Positions 9,397-24,911 of a stretch of DNA of 64,000 nucleotides are shown here, one piece after another (position 1 is the first letter of the stretch; each line of letters opens with the position of its first letter). The stretch covers positions 2,080,001-2,144,000 of the forward strand of contig CAWBKB010000001.1 of NCBI GenBank assembly GCA_963789265.1. Reading direction: 5' to 3'. Source of the DNA: an uncultured delta proteobacterium. Lineage in GTDB: Bacteria > Desulfobacterota > Desulfomonilia > Desulfomonilales > Desulfomonilaceae. The translations under genes were made by a program, and so were the position numbers. A model generated the notes under the pieces. The model made no database searches and was not told where the DNA came from. It saw nothing but the letters and a program-made list of their open reading frames with translations.

Positions 9397-9434
9397 CTAC
9401 TTTCTATCGTCTTGCATTCTCCAATACACGAAAA

Positions 9435-11158
9435 TCAATAAGTTCGTTCCTTTGGCTGAAAACGAGTGATCCTCACCGGCTTGTACCGAGATTCGCGGGC
9501 TGTCGTCGGTTCTTTGAATCAGGGTGTGTTTCAACCAATTAGCGTCATCTCGTTTGGGATAATCTTCTCTGAAATGCGCACCTCTACTTTCCGTCCGCGC
9601 TATGGCCGACAAGAGCATGGTTTCCGCCAAACCCAGTAAGGATTCCAGCTCGCAAGCCTCCATGATGTCCGTGTTGAACAAATTCCCGCGGTCGTCTATT
9701 GAAATCTCCCGGTAACGCTCCTTCAGCGAACCAAGTTCGGACAATGCCTTTTGCAGGTCTCTCTCATTTCTGAAGACCGAACACCACTCCGACATAAGTT
9801 CTTGCAGAGATTTTCTTATGTGAGCGACCTTCTCACCTTTGCTCTTTTGCTTGAGTTTCTCCAACTTCTGAGAAAATCTGCTCTCCGGGTGATCGGGCAG
9901 TTCCTTCCAATCCAATTGTTCAAGGTCTCGAGCAATGAGTTTGCCCGCGCGACGCCCGAACACCACAAGGTCGACCAGGGAATTGCAGCCGAGCCGGTTG
10001 GCGCCGTGAACTGAGATGCACGCGCATTCGCCCGCAGCGTACAGACCTCGAACAGGCTCCCCTTTCTCGTCGAGCACAGCGCCGTCAACATCCGTGGGGA
10101 TGCCGCCCATCATGTAGTGGCACGTCGGCTTCACAGGGATCGGATCGGTGGCCGTGTCCAGCCCGAGATAAATGCGAACGAACGATGAAATGTCAGATAG
10201 CTTCTCGGCCAACTGTTCCTTGCCTATGGAAGTGAGATCCAGATGGAGATAATCGCGTCCGTCGATGCCTCTTCCTTCACGTATTTCCGTCATCATTGCC
10301 CTGGAGACCACATCCCTTGCAGCGAGATCTTTTATCACGGGGGCATACTCTTCCATAAATCGCCTACCATCATTGTTACGAAGAATACCGCCCTCCCCTC
10401 GCGCGGCCTCACTGATAAGTCACTCCCAACCCGTAGATGCCTGTTGGGTGAAACTGGACGAATTCCATGTCCTGTAATGGAATTCCGGCGCGATATGCGA
10501 AATAGACGCCATCGCCCGTGTTGGCAAAACAGTTGGAGGTTGTTTGGTAAAGCTTGCCGAATCCTCCGGTGGCCAACAAGACTGCACGAGCCTGAAAAAC
10601 ATGTAGTTTGCCCGTTGCAAGCTCATAAGCGATCAGGCCGTTCACGCTGGATCCTTCCTTGATCAAGTCCACGAGACAGAACTCGGAGTAAACCTTGATG
10701 CCTTTCATTAGGGCGGCACCGGCTAAGGTGTCCAAAATCACCCAACCGGTCCGATCCGCCGCGTAGCAGGCTCTTTTTATTGCAGCTTCACCGAAATTTC
10801 TGGTGTGCCCCCCAAACGCTCTCTGAGCAATAGTTCCTTCCGGAGTTCTGTTGAAGGGTACCCCCATGTGTTCCAACTCGTAAACGGCACGCACCGCGTC
10901 TTTGGCGAGCACTTCGGCAGCATCTTGATCGGTGAGGTAATCGCCCCCCTTCACGGTATCGTACATGTGCCATTCCCATGAATCCGGTTCTTCATTTCCC
11001 AGAGAAGCGCCAATGCCTCCCTGTGCGGCCCCGGAATGCGACCTTGTGGGGTAAACTTTGCTGATTACCGCAACATCCAGGTCGCCGGCCACCTCAAGCG
11101 CAGCCCTCAATCCGGCCAAACCCGTACCTACTATTACGACGTCATGTTTTAAGGTCAT
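9435..11158 (-). CDS. sdhA: Succinate dehydrogenase/fumarate reductase flavoprotein (apparent frameshifts near 10420 and 9485)
   Basis: [38 protein letters not shown] and ESRGAH motifs over two ORFs; C-terminus [16 protein letters not shown] in a shifted frame. Confidence 0.92.
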
Positions 11159-13523: not shown

Positions 13524-15257
13524 TCAACCTCTACTGACCCTGGGCGTTATCATGTGATGGTGAGGACAAATGGACGCGGGGTTTTGGTATGCGCAGTGGA
13601 CAAATGCCACCATGTACTTGCGCATCTCGGGAAAGGGAACGACTTCGTCCACAAATCCTCTTTTGGCACAATATACGGGTCTGGAATTGTCATAATACTG
13701 TTGGGCCAAGGCATTCATCTTGTCAATAACGGGTTGAAGCGGTCGCTCCGCATCTTTTTCTTTGACCAGCCGCCTGGCAAAGGAAGCGGCTGCGGCTGTC
13801 TCGCCGTGCATCACGTATATCTCGGTAGACGGTGTGCCCAAAGTGAAGACCGTATGGTTGTTGGCGGTGGGACCGCCCATGATGTAATGCGCCGCGGCGG
13901 TCCCTTTGCGGAGAACGAAGAGCATCATCGGCACCGTGGTCTGTTCGATGGAATATATTAGAGATTGGCCCAAACCCAGCAGTTCCGCTTTTTCCGCTAT
14001 GTCGCCCACATCTATGCCGGAAGTGTCCTGAAACCAGACAATTGGGATGCGGTCTCTGCCGCACAGAGTGACAAACTCATTCATTTTGATGAGCCCTTGT
14101 CTGTAAAGTTTCCCACCAATGCCCGGATAAGGCGCGTATTCCGGATAGCCTTGACCTAAAAAACCTTGTTTGTTTCCTATGACCCCGAGTAGAAACCGTC
14201 GATCTTGACCAGACCCGTGTACACCTCCGGACCGTATTCAGGACGAAATTCCAAGTGCTCGCTGTTGTCTGTCAACCGGGCGAGCACCTCTTCGAAGCTG
14301 TAAACCACTTTTTGATTCATAGGAACTATGACGTTCAGGTCGTCTCCGCTGAATCGCGGCTCCGCGGGCTCCGCCACCCTGAAGAATTTAGGATCATAGG
14401 AGGGGAGAGTTTTCATATAATCTTTCAGGGCGTCCAGCGTGGCTTCTTCCGTATCAAAGACTGCTCTGAAAAAGCCTGTAGAATCATAGTGAATCTTCAC
14501 GCTACCAGGTGGCACTTCCTTGAAATGTCTCGTGGCTTCGATAAGTTGTTCGGCCCCTTCTTCGTCGAAAAACCCTTTGGGGCTCATTCCGCTCACAATT
14601 CCCCCTCCGCCCACGGCAATGTTCGCGTTTTTGTGCGCCAGGAGGAGTGTAGGGCTTATCCCCTGATAACCTCCCCCGGCTGGATTCGTGCCGTAAATGG
14701 CGGCCAAAACTGGGATACCCAGCTTCTCGAGCTCCCGCGTGTCGGAAAAAGGTCGTTCCGCCTCCTCTTCTGTCCGGATAAACCTCTTCCTGCTCGGTGA
14801 GCTTCACTCCCGAACAGTTCACCAGCCACACCAGAGGCACCCTCAGAAGCTTAGCCATATCTGTGGCGCGGAGAATGTTTTCCGATTGTCCCACGATCCA
14901 GGCTCCGGCAACAACCTTGTTGTCAAATCCTATTATTACAGCCCACTTTCCGTTTATTCTCCCCAGTCCGTCTATGACCCCGGTTGTTCCCTCTTCATTG
15001 TTCGCGGGATCGAAAATGGAATGAAGTGGACACCATGTCCCGCGATCCACCAGATACTCGAGTCGTTGCCAGACGGTCAGTTGTCCCCTCTGGTTAATCT
15101 TCTCCGAGGGAAGGCCGGCAGACTTAACTTTGTCCAACGCTTCGGAGAGTTGTTTCTCGACTTCCTTGATCTTGGCTATATTGTCTTCGCCTTGTTTGAT
15201 CTTGGATTGGCTAAGAGATTTGCCTATCTGGGTCATCTTCTCGAAGTACGGTCTCAT
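13524..15257 (-). CDS. gcdA: Glutaconyl-CoA decarboxylase alpha-like carboxyltransferase (apparent frameshifts near 14735 and 14190)
   Basis: MRPYFEKM start; LVNCSGV, GTNPAGGGY, FQDTSGIDVG and RKGTAAAHY motifs across three ORFs. Confidence 0.82.
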
Positions 15258-15425
15258 CCCATTTCCTCCGTGTATTTTCATAAAGGCGTAAACGTTCAAA
15301 GCATTAACAATAACAACTTGCCTCAACGTTTTCAAGAAAGAGAATGCAGGATTGGGGGGAAGGCGCGAAGTGAAAACAGCTTGCCCTAATCCGCGGGGCG
15401 CTGATAGGGCAAGCTGAATGCGGAC

Positions 15426-16238: not shown

Positions 16239-16388
16239 AACTCTTTGACCCGAATGTCACTCCCCTAAGAACCCGCGACGGACATACCATATCATAAATG
16301 ACCGCTTTTGACCACGCTTTTCTTCAAGACAGGCTTTTTCTCTTCACAAAAACATTCCAGAATGATTAACTTAACTGGCGAGCGTACA

Positions 16389-18314
16389 ATGAAACATTCT
16401 GTGTCTGACTGCATTGATTACGAAAGGGAGTTGAATCCTGCGCAACTCGAAGCCGTTACCGTTCCTTCGGGACCGGTGTTGGTTATCGCAGGCGCAGGAT
16501 CAGGGAAGACCCGAACCATCGTTTACCGGGTTGCATGGCTTGTAGAGCACGGTGTAGACCCCGGTTCCATCCTGCTGTTGACCTTCACGAGGAAGGCTGC
16601 GGAAGAAATGCTCGGCCGCGCGGCTCAGCTCTTGGACCGTAGCGTTTCAAGAGTCGCGGGAGGGACGTTTCATTCGACCGGAAACTTGCTCATGCGGAGA
16701 TACGCGAGCTTACTCGGATTTGACTCCTCGTTTTCCATTATGGATCAGGGAGATTCCGTAGAAGTATTTGAACATTTCAGGAAGAGTGTGATCGCGCCTG
16801 AAGATCTAAAGGGCTTCCCAAAGGCAAGAACCATTGCGGAAGTTGTGAGCAGAAGCGTCGGCAGTGGCAGGACTATTCGGGAAGTACTGGAGCAGCGATA
16901 TCCTCATTTCGGCGAATACGCTGCGGACCTGGATAAAATTCAGAGGTTATACGAGGAGCACAAGCGCTCCAACAATCTGACGGATTATGACGATCTCCTC
17001 GTCAACCCCATAAAGCTTCTTGAAGAGCACGAGCATGTCAGGAGAGATGTTTCCACCCAATGGCAACACATTCTTGTGGACGAGTACCAGGACACCAACA
17101 GGCTTCAGGCCCGCATCGTGCAACTGCTCGCTTATGTTCACGACAATGTGATGGTGGTAGGAGACGATTCCCAGAGTATCTACTCTTTCAGGGGGGCTGA
17201 CTTCACCAACATCATGGAATTCCCCAAGATCTTCAAGGATACCAAGATCATCAGACTGGAGGAGAACTACAGGAGCACGGCGCCTATCCTGTCAGTGACC
17301 AATTCCATCATAGAACGGGCCGTAAACGGCTATCCTAAGAGACTCTTTACGCGCAAAGCAGGCGGGCCTCTGCCGTTGGCCGCCCGTTCTTCCAGTGAAC
17401 GAGAACAGAGTCGATTCGTAGTTCAGTGCGTCAGGGAGCTACGCGATCACGGAGTTCCCTTGAGCGAAGTCGCTGTCCTGTTCCGCGTGGGCTTCCACTC
17501 CTTCGATCTCGAGGGAGAGCTGACTCGCAATAATATACCCTTCGTGAAATACGGCGGATTCAAGTTCTTGGAGAGCATGCACATCAAAGATGTGCTGGCC
17601 CATCTCAAGGTCTTCAATAATCCGAAAGATCGTTTGAGTTGGATGAGAATTCTCAGGCTCCTTCCGGGGGTGGGAATTAAGACCGCAATGAAGATCGCGA
17701 GCAGAATCGCCGACGAAGGGATTCCAAAGAGACCAACCGATCTGCTAACCGGGGACCCAAAATACAAGAAGGACTTTGAAGCCTTGTTGGGTCTCATCGC
17801 AGACCTTGAGCAGCACAAAGGTCCGATTTCCGAAAAGGTGGAACGGATAAACCTTTATTATTTCCCGTTCCTGAAGGAGAGGTACGACAACTATCCCAAA
17901 AGGATGCGGGATCTGGAGCACTTGGCCGATCTTACGGTCTCTTACAAAAGCTTGAATCGTTTTCTGAACGACATGGCCTTGGAGCCGCCGGATGAGGAAC
18001 GATCCAGCGTCGCCACGCCGAATGAAAACCTGGTGTTGTCCACGATTCATTCGGCCAAGGGGCTTGAATGGCACACTGTAATCATCATTTGGGCCGCGGA
18101 AGGGCGAATCCCCTCCCCCATGGCCCTTGATTCACCAAGCGACTTGGAGGAAGAGCGAAGACTCCTCTACGTGGCAACGACGCGCGCCAAACACAATCTG
18201 GTCGTAGTGGCTCCTTTGACCCTATTGGACCGTCGCCTCGGACAGGTCCCGGTGCGACTTTCACGATTCTTCGAGGAGATCCCACCGGAATACTTCCGCA
18301 CTTATTCGGTTTGA
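16389..18314 (+). CDS. UvrD/PcrA-family SF1 DNA helicase
   Basis: AGAGSGKT, LVDEYQDTN, VGDDSQSIYSFRGA, STIHSAKGLEW and EERRLLYVATTRA motifs. Confidence 0.95.
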   Translation: MKHSVSDCIDYERELNPAQLEAVTVPSGPVLVIAGAGSGKTRTIVYRVAWLVEHGVDPGSILLLTFTRKAAEEMLGRAAQLLDRSVSRVAGGTFHSTGNLLMRRYASLLGFDSSFSIMDQGDSVEVFEHFRKSVIAPEDLKGFPKARTIAEVVSRSVGSGRTIREVLEQRYPHFGEYAADLDKIQRLYEEHKRSNNLTDYDDLLVNPIKLLEEHEHVRRDVSTQWQHILVDEYQDTNRLQARIVQLLAYVHDNVMVVGDDSQSIYSFRGADFTNIMEFPKIFKDTKIIRLEENYRSTAPILSVTNSIIERAVNGYPKRLFTRKAGGPLPLAARSSSEREQSRFVVQCVRELRDHGVPLSEVAVLFRVGFHSFDLEGELTRNNIPFVKYGGFKFLESMHIKDVLAHLKVFNNPKDRLSWMRILRLLPGVGIKTAMKIASRIADEGIPKRPTDLLTGDPKYKKDFEALLGLIADLEQHKGPISEKVERINLYYFPFLKERYDNYPKRMRDLEHLADLTVSYKSLNRFLNDMALEPPDEERSSVATPNENLVLSTIHSAKGLEWHTVIIIWAAEGRIPSPMALDSPSDLEEERRLLYVATTRAKHNLVVVAPLTLLDRRLGQVPVRLSRFFEEIPPEYFRTYSV

Positions 18315-18382: not shown

Positions 18383-18475
18383 GGAGAGATGACCGAGAGG
18401 CCGAAGGTGCTCGCCTGCTAAGCGAGTGTAGGGTGTTGAGCCTTACCGAGGGTTCGAATCCCTCTCTCTCCGCCA
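18383..18475 (+). tRNA. tRNA-Ser(GCT)
   Basis: GGAGAGA/TCTCTCC acceptor stem, anticodon arm CTCGC-CTGCTAA-GCGAG, long variable arm, GGTTCGAATCC, encoded CCA. Confidence 0.97.
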
Positions 18476-19828: not shown

Positions 19829-20974
19829 TCATGCCTGGCTTTTTATGAAGGAGATGCTGGAGACTGGAATAGTATAAAGGTGCTGCCCAGATTCAACGCC
19901 GATAAGGCCGTTCTCATTCCAGATGAGAATTCCATTGATATGCTCGTTTGAACCCACCAGTGATATCTCCACTTCGGCCCGGGCAGAAGATAGTCTTGCC
20001 AGTACACTGCTGGTGGTTGAAGCTGCCGGAACGCCCCGAGTTGCGCCTACCGACAGCTCCACTTGATGGGCTGAGTGAGACATTTCCTGAGTCTGCGATC
20101 CATACCGACCGGGTTCGGTTGACGATATGGGCGCTTCCAGGGCTACGCTGGCAGTCATAGAAATATCATCTATCAACTCATCAATTATGGTCTCATCGAG
20201 AACCAGGGAATCGTCGATTGACTGACTCTGAGCCATTGAAGATTGGTATTGGGTCTGCGCGGGCTTGTCTCGCGGAATTGCAGTGGAAGTGGAGAGACCG
20301 GCAGAGCGAATGGGGCCTGCCGCAGGCACGGATGGTTGCGGGACCACAATTCGCTGGCCGAGGTTTTCGAAGTCTTGGAGGGTATAGCGAAAGTTGGGGT
20401 TGATAAATTTTACGTCGCAGGCCACCGTCTTTCCGGCGATTTTCGTGTTAAAAGTCTCCGGAAGCCTGAGAACAGTATCCAGGCTTACGTCCGTATCACA
20501 TTGAAGGTGGTCGCTGATGGTCCTGATGACCCGTTTTAATTGCTCCGGGTCCTTAACTTCGTTCACTTCCTTCAGGAGCCAGTAAAGGTGAGCCCCTCGC
20601 CCTGATTCCACTATGATGGAAGGAGCCCTTGGAAAGCTCCTGATGGCCTTCGCCGCCTGCTGGGGACCTTCATAGTAAACCTTCTTCTCCTCATGGCCTT
20701 CTGACCCGATGTCCAGATCAGCCCACAATGCCACCAAGAAATGTATGTGCTCTTTCTCGGCTTTCATCCGCTCTCGCGGGCAAATCCCGAAGTAGACGTC
20801 TCTTTCTTCTCCGTAGTGTTCTTTGGCAAGAATTTCGATGTTTGGGAAATAACGAGTGCTCTGCTTTGGGTCGCCCCGCTTAAAACTCTTTACAAGAATG
20901 AATCCCCGGTACTCTTTATAATATTGGGCAAAGATTGCCTCGAGAAAATCTTTGCGTGTAAACTTGGGGACCAT
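19829..20974 (-). CDS. RepB-type (AEP) primase domain + acidic linker + Sm/Hfq-like C-terminal domain
   Basis: VYFGICPR, WADLD, IIVESGRGAHLYWLL and VLRLPETFNTK motifs; last ~60 aa follow a helix + five-strand Sm pattern. Confidence 0.75.
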   Translation of the reverse strand: MVPKFTRKDFLEAIFAQYYKEYRGFILVKSFKRGDPKQSTRYFPNIEILAKEHYGEERDVYFGICPRERMKAEKEHIHFLVALWADLDIGSEGHEEKKVYYEGPQQAAKAIRSFPRAPSIIVESGRGAHLYWLLKEVNEVKDPEQLKRVIRTISDHLQCDTDVSLDTVLRLPETFNTKIAGKTVACDVKFINPNFRYTLQDFENLGQRIVVPQPSVPAAGPIRSAGLSTSTAIPRDKPAQTQYQSSMAQSQSIDDSLVLDETIIDELIDDISMTASVALEAPISSTEPGRYGSQTQEMSHSAHQVELSVGATRGVPAASTTSSVLARLSSARAEVEISLVGSNEHINGILIWNENGLIGVESGQHLYTIPVSSISFIKSQA

Positions 20975-21195
20975 TGAAAAACCTAAGCCGCTTGAATTTA
21001 GGGTAAATTTTTCCCGGTTATTCTATTCGCGGGTCTCTTGAATGTCAATGACGGTCTCGCTGTGCGCGGGTCCAATTAATTCGGGGTTATTGGGGTGAGA
21101 CGCTACTTCGCCCGGAAAAGGGTGGATTCTACGCCAGGAGACCGGGGTAGGACGAGGCCCCAGGAATCTTCTCCTGACACGAGAAACTGGCGAGA

Positions 21196-22624
21196 TCAGC
21201 CCTGCTTGCTCTTCTTTTTCTTGGGAGTAATTCCCTCACGTTTCTCTCCTTTTGCGTTGCTCTTCTGCCTCGCCCTGGCCAGGTTCTCCTGGATGACTTT
21301 GTTGCCCGGCGCGAGTTTGGCGGCCTTGGCCAACATGCGGATCTCTTGCTTGCTATCACCCTTCTTGCCGAGTGCAACCGCTCGATCGTTGTATGCTTTG
21401 GCAAGATCAACCTTGATCTCGGCGCTGGACGGGGCGAGGCTCAGCGCCTTTTCCAAGAGCCGAATCTCCTCTTGCTGTTTGCCCGCGTCCCCTTTCGTGA
21501 GGGCTTCATTGTGGTATGCCGCTGCCAGATTTGTCCGGGCTAATTGATTCTTCGGATCGATCTTGATTGCTCGCTCCAGTAGCTCAATCGCCTTGGCAGA
21601 AGCCCCGGTCTTAAACTGCCGTACAGCCTCCTTGGCTAAAAGATTGCTAAGATTTCCGACGGTAGCCTGATTCTTCGGATCCAGTTTCAGCGAGGTCTCC
21701 AGGTCGGATATTCTTTCGGCGAATTGCATATTTCGACTTTCGTCTACCGCCAGGTTGTTGTATGCAGCGGCAAGGTTTCTTTTTCGTTACAGAGTCGTTG
21801 GGAAAGATTTGCAGAGCTTCTTTCAATACAGCGATCTGCCCGGTCAAATCACCGTCCTTTCCTTTGATGACTGCCGAATTTGATAAGGCCCTTCCCAAAT
21901 TCTCCTTAATCAGCGGGTCTTTCGGGGCTAACTTCAGAGCAGTCCGAAGGAGTTCGATCTCCTTCTCATCCGCGCCCGCTTTACCTTTTGCCAATGCCAG
22001 GTTGTAATAAGCTGTACCAAGATTCTTCTTAATTTTGGGATTCCCCGGATCTAATGCCGCGGCCTTTTCGAGCGCAGCCACCTCCTGGTCGTGCGTACCG
22101 GCACGGCCTTTGACCACGCCGAAGTTGTTCAGTAGAGCGGCCAACATTTTGCGGCCGGAAGCATTCTCAGGGTCGATCTCCGTTACTTGACCGAGAAAGG
22201 CAATCTTGTCCGCGAGGTGTACCTTTTCTTCGGGCAATGATGCAGCTTGCAATGCAGCGTTTATGAAATTGAACCGAATATCCTTGTCCTCCGGCGTAAG
22301 GCGTACCGCTTTTCCCAAAAAGCGTACGCCCTCCGTCGAATTTCCTTCTCGAACGAGCTTAAGTCCGAGATTGTTATACGCAACTGCAAGCACATTCTTA
22401 TACTTGAGGTTTTGTGGGGCAAGTTTTGCTGCCTTCTCAAGTGCCGCTATAGCTGCAGATATGTTGTTACGAGATAGTAGATTGCTGCCGCGGAAAAACG
22501 CATTCTCAGCCTGAACGGCGTCGGAAGGTTCGACGGCAAGTGAAGGCAGGGACGTGAGACACAAAACTACTACTAAAAGGGTCTGAGATAACGTACACAC
22601 CGTTCCTCTAGATCGCGTGGCCAT
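21196..22624 (-). CDS. Exported TPR-like repeat protein (apparent frameshift near 21780)
   Basis: Signal-like N-terminus; repeated NLA.AY.N...LEKA..L.P units continuing across two ORFs. Confidence 0.8.
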
Positions 22625-22826
22625 GCATCGCCCCTCGCAGTCACCATTTACGGAAAGAGAAGCTCTCCCCGATAAGTGGACACATACCATGAGAATTTCA
22701 GGGGGTCAATTTAATGAGGCCATAGCGTGGCAATGCAGCCGCTCTTCTGCAAGAGCGGCCCCGGGGAGGTTGCGGCGATGATCGGCCCTATGTCCAGGAG
22801 GATATAGGGCTATTCGATCACCGGTA

Positions 22827-24911
22827 TCACGCAGTTGCAACACTTTCGGATATCTCAATTTCTGCGCTGGTCGAGGCGGTTAAGGACTCTATGCGCACCG
22901 CGCTCACCTTATAATCAGGTGTCTTGCACACCGGATCTAGAGACGTACCCAGCAAAACATTGGAATTCGCCTCTTCAAAGTGGAAATCCATGAATATGGC
23001 GCCCGGCGGGACGATATCGCCAGGTCGGACGGCTATGACCAGTTCTCCGCGCCTGGATATCACCCTGGCCAGGTCACCGTCTTTCAAGCCCAACTTTTCG
23101 GCATCGACATAATTAATCTGCGCAAACGGCTCCGGCATTTCCTTGTGCAATGATGGACAGTTCCCGGTCTGGGTACGGGTATGATAGTGCATCCATCGTC
23201 GTCCAGTCGTCAGCAGGTAAGGATACTCATCGTCGGGCATTTCCTCCGAGGGACGGTAATCGATGACGTGGAAAAGGCCCTTGCCTCGTGTAAACCTGCC
23301 TTCGTGAAGAAAGACAGTACCGGGATGATCCGTAGACGGGCAAGGCCACTGGATTCCCTCGCCTTCGATGCGATCATAGTTGATGCCACCAAATATTGGG
23401 GAAAGACTTGCCAATTCGTCCCAAATCTCTTTCGGCGAATCGTAATTCATGGAGAGCCCCATTCTGGAGCCGAGTTGGCAAAGGATTTCCCAGTCCGGTC
23501 GAGTTCCTTCTAGAGGCTCAACAGCCTTGCGTACGCGTTGCACTTTTCGTTCGGTGTTGACGAAAGTACCGTCCTTTTCGGCCCAGGAAGTTCCTGGGAG
23601 AACTACGTGCGCAAGCTTGGCGGTCTCGGTCAGGAATATGTCTTGCACCGCCAGGAATTCCGCTGACTTCAAGGCGTGGATAATGTGGTTCGTGTCCGGA
23701 TCACTCTGCGCGGGATTTTCTCCCAAGACGAACATCCCCTTGACCGAACCGTCAATGAGCCCGTACACCATGTCGGGAATGGTGTAACCCACCCGGTCCG
23801 ACAGTTCCGCTTGCCAAGCCTTCTGAAATTTGGCACGAACATTTTGATCGGTCACCACCTGGTACCCGGGATAAACATTCGGCAAACCTCCCATGTCGCA
23901 ATGCCCCTGGACGTTGTTCTGACCTCTGAGAGGATTGACCCCCGACGAACGGCGACCAATGTGCCCCGTAAGCATGGCAAGGTTCGCCAAGGACTTCACA
24001 TTGTCAACGCCATGAGAGTGCTCGGTGATGCCAAGGGTATAAAGGATGGTCGAGCACGGCGAAGTGGCATAGATCCGCGCCACGCGCTCGATTTCCTCCG
24101 GGGGTACCCCACATATTTCCGAAGCTTTCTCAGGTGGAAACTTTTCCAGATGCGCCTGAAGCTCAGCAAAACCTTCTACCCTTTCAGAGATGAAATCCGA
24201 ATTGTGCCAGTTGTTCTTCAGAATCGCATGCATCATTCCGTTGATGAAGGCCACATCCGAACCGAAGTTCAAAGTTATATGAATGTCGGAGATCGATGTG
24301 AGTTGGATCTTGCGAGGATCTACCACGATCAGGGTCGCGCCTTTCTGCTTGGCCCTGAACACTCTGTGCGCGATGAGAGGATGAGCCTCGGTGGTATTCG
24401 ATCCGACTACCAGGACAACCGATGCATCCTCGATCTCGGGGATAGAATTTGTCATCGCTCCGCTTCCGAATGCGGCGGCAAGACCTGCCACCGTCGGCGC
24501 GTGTCAGAGACGGGCGCAGGCATCTACGTTGTTGGTTCCAAAGCCTGCCCGGCAGAATTTCTGGAGAAGGTAGTTCTCTTCATTGGTGCATCGGCCTGAT
24601 GAGAGGAACGCGAGGCTGTCACCGCCGTTTTTGTCTTTGATCTCTTTCAGCCGGGAGACCGTGAAGTCCAGAGCCTCGTCCCAGGAGGCTGCTTGCAGCG
24701 CGCCGTTCTTACGCACCAGCGGAGTGGTCAGCCTGTTAGGGCTGTCAACAAATTCGTGGGCATTCCAGCCCTTAATGCACAATTTGCCGTCGTTCATCGG
24801 CGCTTTCTTGAGCGGCACGGTGCCGATAAGCTTCCCATCAAGAACTTCGAGAAGCATTTGGCAGCCGCAGCCGCAAAAGGGACATGTGGTCTTTACGAAT
24901 CTATAGTCCAT
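22827..24911 (-). CDS. fdhF: Formate dehydrogenase alpha subunit, selenocysteine-containing, FdhF-like
   Basis: CPFCGCGC..C cluster; ACARL-UGA-HAPTVAGL active site in frame at 24504-24506; LRGQNNVQG. Confidence 0.93.
24470..24503 (-). promoter_or_regulatory. Bacterial SECIS element
   Basis: Hairpin CGGTGGCA-GGTCT-TGCCGCCG about 10 nt after the in-frame UGA, resembling the fdhF SECIS. Confidence 0.85.

Follow-up and report, generated by a model that had tools for sequence, protein, structure and literature searches.

The window analysed here is a 64,000-nucleotide stretch from the genome of an uncultured delta proteobacterium of the family Desulfomonilaceae (assembly GCA_963789265.1, contig CAWBKB010000001.1, positions 2,080,001 to 2,144,000 of the forward strand); positions below are counted from its first letter. 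On its minus strand, at 19829-20974, lies an open reading frame (ORF) of 381 residues that an original prediction, made by a model from the letters alone, had described as a primase-polymerase of the archaeo-eukaryotic primase (AEP) type fused to an Sm/Hfq-like barrel. We refer to its product as the AEP-Sm protein. The ORF is exactly as that prediction gave it, and the motifs it quoted are present: WADLD (residues 84-88), SGRGAH (124-129) and D166..VLRLPETFNTK (166-178), followed near the C-terminus by SVLARLSS, EVEISL, INGILIW, GLIGVES, LYTIP and ISFIK. An alignment of 20 family members divides the protein into five segments: an N-domain (residues 1-207), a linker (208-253), an acidic motif (254-273), a further linker (274-317) and a C-domain (318-381). 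The AEP domain, the acidic motif and the barrel are three constrained modules. The features of the gene are as follows.

19829 to 20974, minus strand: coding sequence of the AEP-linker-Sm protein, 381 residues, stop codon included in the coordinates; the N-terminus M(V/I)xKFTRKDFLE is kept in all aligned homologues
20354 to 20974, minus strand: AEP primase-polymerase catalytic domain, residues 1-207
20711 to 20731, minus strand: AEP motif I, ALWADLD, residues 82-88 (D86, D88), invariant in 20/20 members of the alignment
20588 to 20605, minus strand: AEP motif II, SGRGAH, residues 124-129 (H129)
20441 to 20482, minus strand: AEP motifs III and IV, LDTVLRLPETFNTK, residues 165-178 (D166, R170, N176)
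20216 to 20353, minus strand: variable linker 1, residues 208-253, rich in P, S, A, T and Q
20156 to 20215, minus strand: conserved acidic motif DDSLVLDETIIDELIDDISM, residues 254-273, net charge -8
20024 to 20155, minus strand: variable linker 2, residues 274-317
19832 to 20023, minus strand: predicted Hfq-like Sm barrel, residues 318-381, with a helix at 322-330 and strands at 334-339, 345-354, 357-362, 365-370 and 374-379
21020 to 21048, minus strand: candidate sigma-70-like promoter, TTGACA-17-TAGAAT, about 46 bp 5′ of the ATG, an 11/12 consensus match and a consensus match only (3 promoter-like sites in the region against 3.1 expected from shuffles)

A word-indexed search with the 381-residue protein returned 276 homologues at E ≤ 1e-3. 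The best 120 of these, called close homologues below, are 311-399 residues long, 57-100% identical and nearly all full length; the named ones carry the labels Desulfomonilaceae, Desulfomonile tiedjei or Thermodesulfobacteriota, and for some the automatic UniRef name is 'RepB-like DNA primase domain-containing protein'. Exhaustive searching gave 3355 matches at E ≤ 1e-3, 473 at E ≤ 1e-10 and 75 at E ≤ 1e-30. Judged by these searches, the pattern of the sequence is far beyond chance. A Pfam and NCBIfam scan of the whole protein found no family (none in Pfam at E ≤ 0.1), and a PDB sequence search with the single protein found no match at E ≤ 10. Among the PHROGs, primase and primase-polymerase families matched residues 53-205 at E about 1e-9.

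The N-terminal domain is modelled as an AEP primase-polymerase

An AlphaFold2 model of the N-domain alone, made from a 76-sequence alignment of relatives, reached a predicted local distance difference test score (pLDDT) of 91.6 and a predicted template-modelling score of 0.88. In a structural search (VIA) of 48,161 PDB representative chains, its best match was the AEP domain of cyanophage S-2L PrimPol (6zp9_B; Z 17.8, root-mean-square deviation (rmsd) 2.6, 171 aligned), followed by RSF1010 RepB′ (3h20_A, Z 14.8; 3h25_A, Z 14.3). Ranks 1-21 were all AEP structures, and PriS, Prim-PolC, LigD-Pol and CAPP scored Z 7.5-9.8. Foldseek gave the first three chains a probability of 1.00 each, with E-values of 1.2e-7 (6zp9_B), 9.9e-6 (3h20_A) and 6.1e-5 (3h25_A). 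On the basis of the model, we confidently assign the N-domain the AEP catalytic fold, as had been proposed from its motifs.

The 76-sequence profile aligns SGRGxH and D..LRLPxT to archaeal PriS (Pyrococcus), with motif II facing SGRGYH and motifs III and IV facing VDxKRILRLPST. SGRGAH129 and L165-D166 fit the general forms sxH of motif II and hD/E of motif III. The catalytic residues are invariant or nearly so in 20/20 aligned family members. WADxD and SGxGxH are kept in 120/120 close homologues, and D86, D88 and H129 are thus all present; position 166 is Asp in 111 and Glu in the other 9. Across the 76 wider relatives, H129 is found in 72, D166 in 50, R170 and P172 in all 76 and N176 in 74. 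As read from these alignments, the full catalytic set of D86, D88, H129, D166, R170 and N176 is intact. The original prediction had also held that the third motif deviates from the usual form and that activity might be altered, a suggestion we do not retain: position 173 varies within the clade (G in 34, E in 18 and D in 18 of the 76 relatives) between the invariant P172 and a near-invariant T174, and D166 and the R170...N176 pair are in place.

The label 'RepB-type' is imprecise: RepB′ is the second-best fold match, but the motif II His, the lack of PriCT and of a Pfam RepB_primase match, and a closer likeness to all3500-like enzymes speak against it. In the portion of Kazlauskas et al. 2018 (PMC5862659) available to us, motif I is defined as hhhDhD/E and motif II carries Gln in RepB′-like enzymes versus His in all3500-like enzymes; section 9 of the same source reports that R231A abolished PolpTN2 activity and that the motif IV pair R231/N237 is functionally linked. 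The six-residue spacing of R170...N176 equals that of this pair. The available text on S-2L PrimPol places that enzyme in the all3500-like family, with RepB′ as its closest structural link. The AEP-Sm protein has the all3500-like traits of a motif II His and a motif IV Arg with a covarying residue six positions on, and distant relatives of its N-domain carry D5_N/DUF5906 and DUF927 domains, as described for all3500. Because of the motif II His and the placement of S-2L PrimPol in the all3500-like family, the N-domain is best called a member of the PrimPol-PV1 supergroup, nearest the all3500-like family rather than RepB′ proper.

Both structural neighbours differ clearly from the AEP-Sm protein. 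S-2L PrimPol (6zp9; all3500-like, PrimPol-PV1) aligns over 171/185 residues and shares the motif II His and the motif IV Arg...Asn, yet is only 13% identical; as far as its available description goes, it is phage-borne and bears a PriCT-2 and a VirE-like C-terminal domain, whereas the AEP-Sm protein has an Sm barrel, lacks a helix-bundle or helicase-like domain, and is chromosomal and vertically inherited. RepB′ (3h20/3h25) is plasmid-borne, and its family, in the available part of PMC5862659, has Gln in motif II and PriCT-1 after the catalytic domain; the AEP-Sm protein has His129 and, after residue 207, a variable linker modelled at low confidence with no PriCT, and leaves Pfam RepB_primase unmatched at E ≤ 0.1.

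The C-terminal domain is predicted to be an Hfq-like Sm barrel

In a full-length AlphaFold2 model made from the 20-sequence alignment, only residues 320-381 were confident, at a pLDDT of about 90. The eight best of the 48,161 chains for this domain were all Hfq (Z 10.1-11.0, rmsd 1.3-3.4, 57-68 aligned), with chains of canonical Hfq (PF17209) from Caulobacter, S. aureus, Thermotoga and Aquifex and of 9lu5 filling ranks 1-7; YaeO (Z 9.4) came next, and then archaeal and eukaryotic Sm/LSm proteins (SmAP, LSm). A C-domain profile built from 26 sequences had as its two best PDB sequence matches the cyanobacterial Hfq proteins (PF21979) of Synechocystis (Ssr3341, 3hfo; E 0.015, structural Z 10.8) and Anabaena (Asl2047, 3hfn; E 0.028), both in register. 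Pfam Hfq_1 matched below threshold in 19/26 members (best E 0.0028), and the ESM Atlas placed the C-domain with DUF6897 and a cyanobacterial Hfq_1 cluster (0.88), all scores being below 0.9 and serving as leads only. The Sm/Hfq fold anticipated for the C-terminus is therefore supported by a predicted structure and by weak, convergent sequence evidence.

Several findings weigh against a simple equation with Hfq. None of the Pfam Sm/Hfq models (PF17209, PF21979, PF01423) matched the C-domain at threshold, and hhalign aligned the C-domain profile to the genome's own canonical Hfq with 27% probability over 24 columns, covering the helix and first strand. The barrel is acidic, with a median isoelectric point (pI) of 4.7. 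As presumed reference sites for RNA contact we used Q8, F42, K56 and H57 of the Hfq proximal pocket and R16, R17 and R19 of the rim (E. coli numbering). When the barrel is aligned by MAFFT to the Hfq of its own genome, the Gln faces T321, RKAR faces S329-S330-A331-R332, FDSF faces N353-E354-N355-G356 and YKH faces non-basic residues, so that Q8, F42, K56 and H57 and two of the three rim arginines are replaced by T, G, non-basic residues and S/S. The predicted fold is that of canonical Hfq, but the C-domain is acidic, and neither the YKH motif nor the rim arginines are present. With this acidity and the replaced RNA-contact positions, the sequence of the barrel does not support canonical Hfq-type RNA binding, and recruitment to RNA through the Sm domain, as first proposed, gains no support from pocket and rim positions that are non-basic in all but one case.

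The available part of a review (PMC4390875) describes binding of Synechocystis Hfq to the C-terminal part of PilB1, so the cyanobacterial branch of the fold is known to act, at least partly, through protein contacts. Cyanobacterial Hfq is a stand-alone protein of about 70 residues, whereas the barrel here is the C-terminal module of an enzyme, with a similarity below every curated threshold. A search for a stand-alone C-domain among proteins of 37-121 residues gave only one match, a 65-residue protein on a 1.1-kb contig that is probably a fragment, and a C-domain hidden Markov model found the barrel in 10/150 listed representatives (four full-length proteins and six fragments). Predicted as an oligomer of four copies, the C-domain had a median score of 0.24 against a mark of 0.42, in a prediction run without controls whose outcome counts neither for nor against a ring.

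Among fusions that include an Hfq-like domain, the nearest precedent that we found is a zinc-finger-Hfq-like protein encoded by Thermococcales plasmids (PMC3543421). According to the accessible part of that source, it is a fusion protein with a C-terminal Hfq-like domain encoded beside replication genes; its partner, however, is a C2H2 zinc finger, its host is an archaeon, its gene lies on a plasmid, and the AEP replicase there is a protein of its own. We found no AEP-Sm/Hfq fusion described, nor this family mentioned, in print, including the available part of PMC5862659, within a search that covered neither subscription-only papers nor supplementary files; to that extent, the architecture is, as the original prediction suspected, undescribed. 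In our view, the AEP-Sm protein is a PrimPol-PV1 AEP that has been domesticated and that has a new arrangement of domains.

A conserved acidic motif lies between two variable linkers

To compare selection along the protein, ratios of non-synonymous to synonymous change (dN/dS) were computed by the pairwise Nei-Gojobori method for 11 pairs from 24 intact orthologous ORFs (23 loci and the window); five loci with broken ORFs were dropped, and pairs with saturated dS gave no ratio. The N-domain gave 0.01-0.05, the C-domain 0.02-0.23 and the linkers mostly 0.14-1.3, and dN of the acidic motif was about 0 in 8/11 pairs. The three modules are under strong purifying selection.

What had been described as an S/T/P/D-rich linker is variable over most of its length, as that description implies, but it is not featureless. 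Linker 1 has no conservation in the 20-member alignment, a pLDDT below 50 and a dN/dS of 0.19-0.57; for linker 2, values of mostly 0.14-1.3 were obtained in 10/11 pairs, and one near-identical pair had no non-synonymous change. Between them, the acidic motif, which the original prediction missed, is near-invariant and is found in 118/120 close homologues. It is also kept in a relative (P0122) in which the C-terminal module is swapped for a TIR domain. A function in the service of the enzyme domain is therefore probable: the motif could be a peptide that docks a partner, or it could mimic nucleic acid and so keep the enzyme inhibited.

The gene is chromosomally fixed in the Desulfomonilaceae

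At 28 loci from species-representative genomes, the TPR gene lies upstream in 26/28 and spmA downstream in 23/28, and the UvrD gene is present in 20/28. The ORF is interrupted at five of these loci (L002, L020, L021, L022, L028), all from one metagenome-bin series; tblastn matches there run the whole length, and we suspect assembly indels. Matches at E ≤ 1e-5 occur in 48/70 family genomes, and the Sm-type gene, full length or split, in 45/70, representing 23/26 genera. Three loci (G040:C45:344212-345355, G041:C13:131573-132737 and G050:C16:31891-33053) carry it as two ORFs broken in the linker, one encoding the N-domain and the other the acidic motif and barrel; either the gene is naturally split there, or the assembly contains frameshifts where the sequence is of low complexity. 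Outside the family, 6/393 genomes of a 401-genome phylum sample gave matches, all of them weak (E 3e-18 to 3e-11, 25-36% identity), in ORFs of 695-878 residues; the AEP-Sm gene itself was not found outside the family in this sample, and the sister family in the class scored 0/6.

Phage and plasmid relatives are annotated as primases and are at most 31% identical over matches that cover more than half of the domain. The genes from 4 to 38 kb included no integrase, transposase, helicase-primase or phage gene, and GC content is flat. The AEP-Sm gene is chromosomally fixed, vertically inherited, restricted to the family and not mobile. Domestication, as originally proposed, is borne out by the lack of mobile genes over 4-38 kb, the synteny across 28 genomes and the strong purifying selection. 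DnaG (404 bits) and canonical Hfq (85.7 bits) are encoded elsewhere in the genome, and a replacement of either by the AEP-Sm protein was rejected since both are present.

Paralogs and relatives with other C-termini

Most family genomes also carry a paralog of 300-400 residues whose N-domain is 40-55% identical to that of the Sm type. In place of the barrel, this helix-type paralog has an amphipathic repeat (ADKIVDKVVEKL type) at its C-terminus. In a midpoint-rooted FastTree tree of 127 N-domains, from which matches covering fewer than 185 profile positions were left out and in which support values were not considered, the helix-type paralogs form a separate clade, and throughout it the first Asp of motif I is changed to G, S, A or T. 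The paralog of the genome studied here (P0271; L031:8768-9790, minus strand; G000:C3:652142-652750) has 340 residues and WAGMD for WADLD; it lies 3.3 kb from a CHAT-NACHT-TPR gene. Its position beside astB is shared by the paralogs of 5/10 other genomes examined. The disordered linkers of 5/28 helix-type representatives (P0129, P0131, P0133, P0134, P0160) contain a short recurring F-E/M-P-V/L-P-Y-E motif, a candidate docking peptide that differs from the Sm type's acidic motif.

Other relatives from the same bacterial family have the AEP-like N-domain fused to further domains, often with catalytic residues lost (P0122, P0126, P0127, P0163, P0166, P0170; among their loci are L046:5993-10810, L049:1635-4421 and L048:6035-11917). 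P0122 is 66% identical to the AEP-Sm protein over residues 4-291, acidic motif included, before its TIR end, and it nests inside the Sm clade; its TIR domain has weak matches to ThsB and SAVED-TIR models. Motif I reads WAHVD in P0126, WAKVY in P0127, WAEMY in P0163, which also lacks the His, and WANLD in P0166. A 1960-residue form is flanked by CHAT-TPR, FHA-kinase and PP2C genes and a 1605-residue TIR form follows an AAA_21 ATPase gene; two of the five contexts examined look like signalling or conflict neighbourhoods and the others do not.

Proposed function

We propose, giving the idea about an even chance, that the AEP-Sm protein works as an accessory primase-polymerase and that its Hfq-like barrels build a ring to which several active sites are tethered; the ring would serve as an assembly or docking hub rather than as a canonical RNA chaperone. 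The AEP domain would carry out template-directed nucleotidyl transfer, that is, primer synthesis, extension or both, on single-stranded nucleic acid. The disordered tether with its invariant acidic, amphipathic motif could act as a partner-docking peptide, or as a mimic that occupies the basic groove until displaced. By analogy with every characterised Hfq/Sm protein, the barrel would form a ring from which several AEP active sites are suspended. Given the acidity of the barrel and the absence of the residues through which Hfq contacts RNA, such a ring is more likely a site of oligomerisation or protein docking than a canonical RNA chaperone. Since DnaG and Hfq are both present elsewhere, the protein would most likely take part in some specialised work on DNA, for example gap filling or repriming. 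What the analysis shows is the architecture, the predicted folds, the intact motifs, vertical inheritance and the pattern of selection; that the protein is an active enzyme, that its barrels form a ring, what the acidic motif does and which cellular process the protein serves are inferences.

Some observations count against this proposal. The S-2L paper, in the part available, notes that AEP proteins commonly work with helix-bundle domains that contact the template, either through fusion or through an interacting partner; no helix-bundle, PriCT or zinc module was found in the AEP-Sm protein, which may thus depend on a partner for de novo priming or be incapable of it. Motif I is changed in two divergent Sm-type representatives (WAHLD in P0123, WADVN in P0124), and catalysis is therefore not indispensable everywhere in the clade. 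Nor is the gene essential for the family: two genera with smaller genomes, g2 and g4, account for 22 of the 25 family genomes without the Sm type, and many of these 22 are more than 90% complete. Among 36 representatives scanned, five end in TIR_2 and one carries Sel1-Pkinase-WD40, and such fusions of close relatives point to signalling or conflict rather than to replication or repair.

That last observation is the starting point for a different explanation, in which the AEP-like domain is a sensor of foreign or aberrant nucleic acid, or a maker of short-oligonucleotide signals. The Sm-barrel form would then be the stand-alone member of a set with TIR- and kinase-fused versions, and its ring a signal-dependent assembly. 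P0122, with its TIR end, shared acidic motif and place in the Sm clade, and with its weak ThsB and SAVED-TIR matches, fits this explanation, as do the CHAT-TPR, FHA-kinase, PP2C and AAA_21 ATPase genes near fused relatives and the CHAT-NACHT-TPR gene near the genome's own paralog. PADLOC, however, has no defence model that matches the AEP domain, the AEP-Sm protein or its paralog, and the neighbours of the AEP-Sm gene are housekeeping genes. Typical defence genes are not known for fixed synteny, wide presence and very low dN/dS, whereas the AEP-Sm gene combines fixed synteny with presence in 23/26 genera and an N-domain dN/dS of 0.01-0.05. Moreover, the fused relatives have mostly lost the catalytic residues that the Sm type retains in 120/120, so the two groups probably work differently. 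We consider a conflict or signalling role unlikely, though it is the main rival to our proposal. Rather more doubtful is a non-catalytic scaffold, in which the AEP fold would serve as a nucleic-acid- or nucleotide-binding module and the protein as a multivalent organiser instead of an enzyme. The helix-type clade, conserved and syntenic despite the loss of the first motif I Asp, the several relatives without catalytic residues, and the surface motifs PSIIVESG, LYWLL and LRLPxT, which are non-catalytic and as conserved across the 76 relatives as the catalytic motifs, are what one would expect of it. We think it improbable because retention in the Sm type of D86, D88 and H129 in 120/120 close homologues, with D or E at position 166 in 120/120, and across 23 genera, is hard to explain without catalysis.

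A remnant replication initiator of an integrated plasmid or prophage would account for the annotation of the nearest phage and plasmid matches as primases. It is at odds with the surroundings of the gene, where integrase, transposase, helicase-primase and phage genes were not found from 4 to 38 kb, composition is flat and the same flanks recur in up to 26/28 species-level genomes; the mobile relatives are distant (at most 31% identity, as above), and the sole nearby tRNA gene (18383-18475) is separated from the AEP-Sm gene by spmAB. This explanation is nearly excluded. A more daring idea, to which we attach little probability, is that a primase domain captured from a mobile element has become a toolkit peculiar to the Desulfomonilaceae. 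The parts would be a catalytic, ring-tethered form, a co-occurring paralog with a crippled motif I and an amphipathic-helix repeat, and sensors fused to TIR or kinase-WD40. In its boldest version, the AEP-Sm protein would make short oligonucleotides or prime on aberrant single-stranded nucleic acid, and the ring would capture products or template ends, much as the replicase of Q-beta receives the 3′ end of the phage RNA from Hfq; the enzyme would thereby be coupled to non-catalytic or TIR paralogs in a new pathway of nucleic-acid surveillance or signalling.

To our knowledge, few AEPs have been taken over for host functions, among them the LigD polymerase domain, Prim-PolC and the CRISPR-associated Prim-Pol. 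If the proposed accessory primase-polymerase is real, the AEP-Sm gene would add a domesticated AEP lineage that is under very strong constraint, has no helicase or helix-bundle partner domain and is fused to an Hfq-like barrel. It would offer a natural test of an Sm ring organising a nucleic-acid enzyme, and a case of one captured catalytic domain diversifying within a single bacterial family, with forms that are catalytic, forms that probably are not, and forms linked to TIR or kinase modules. Among the members is P0042, which bears the label Desulfomonile tiedjei and comes from a contig of 6.5 Mb; if this is a cultivated strain, these questions are open to experiment.

Neighbouring genes

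The minus-strand order is TPR gene, AEP-Sm gene, spmA and spmB (Gate domains), followed by a plus-strand tRNA-Ser (GCU), a convergent UvrD-type gene and DUF2225. The original prediction was right about spmAB, the TPR gene and the absence of mobile genes, and wrong in placing no helicase nearby: a UvrD/PcrA-type SF1 helicase gene (16308-18314, plus strand) lies 1.5 kb downstream, beyond spmAB and convergent with it. This is a helicase of the housekeeping type, not a primase-coupled replicative one. The TPR gene is likewise where it was said to be, though not as a single ORF: in this assembly it consists of two overlapping ORFs in different frames (21196-21729 and 21647-22690, minus strand), whereas in the closest relative it is a single ORF of 496 residues (L003:4288-5778). 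Genes for an sdhA-like protein (9397-11158) and a carboxyl transferase (13524-15335) are split as well, and all three cases are probably assembly indel errors, or else real frameshifts. As a partner of the acidic motif the TPR neighbour was rejected; the TPR protein starts with a signal-peptide-like segment and is therefore probably not cytoplasmic.

The genes from 4 to 38 kb encode RecO, Sdh/Frd, citrate synthase, rubrerythrin, a carboxyl transferase, a formate-dehydrogenase-type oxidoreductase, ABC transporters and an acyl-CoA ligase. The tRNA-Ser gene lies between spmB and the UvrD-type gene, and no integrase or repeat points to it as an attachment site. The molybdopterin oxidoreductase gene of the formate-dehydrogenase type (22827-24911, minus strand) contains an in-frame TGA at 24504-24506, in the context ...DACARL-TGA-HAPTVAGL..., which is probably a selenocysteine codon rather than a boundary between two genes.

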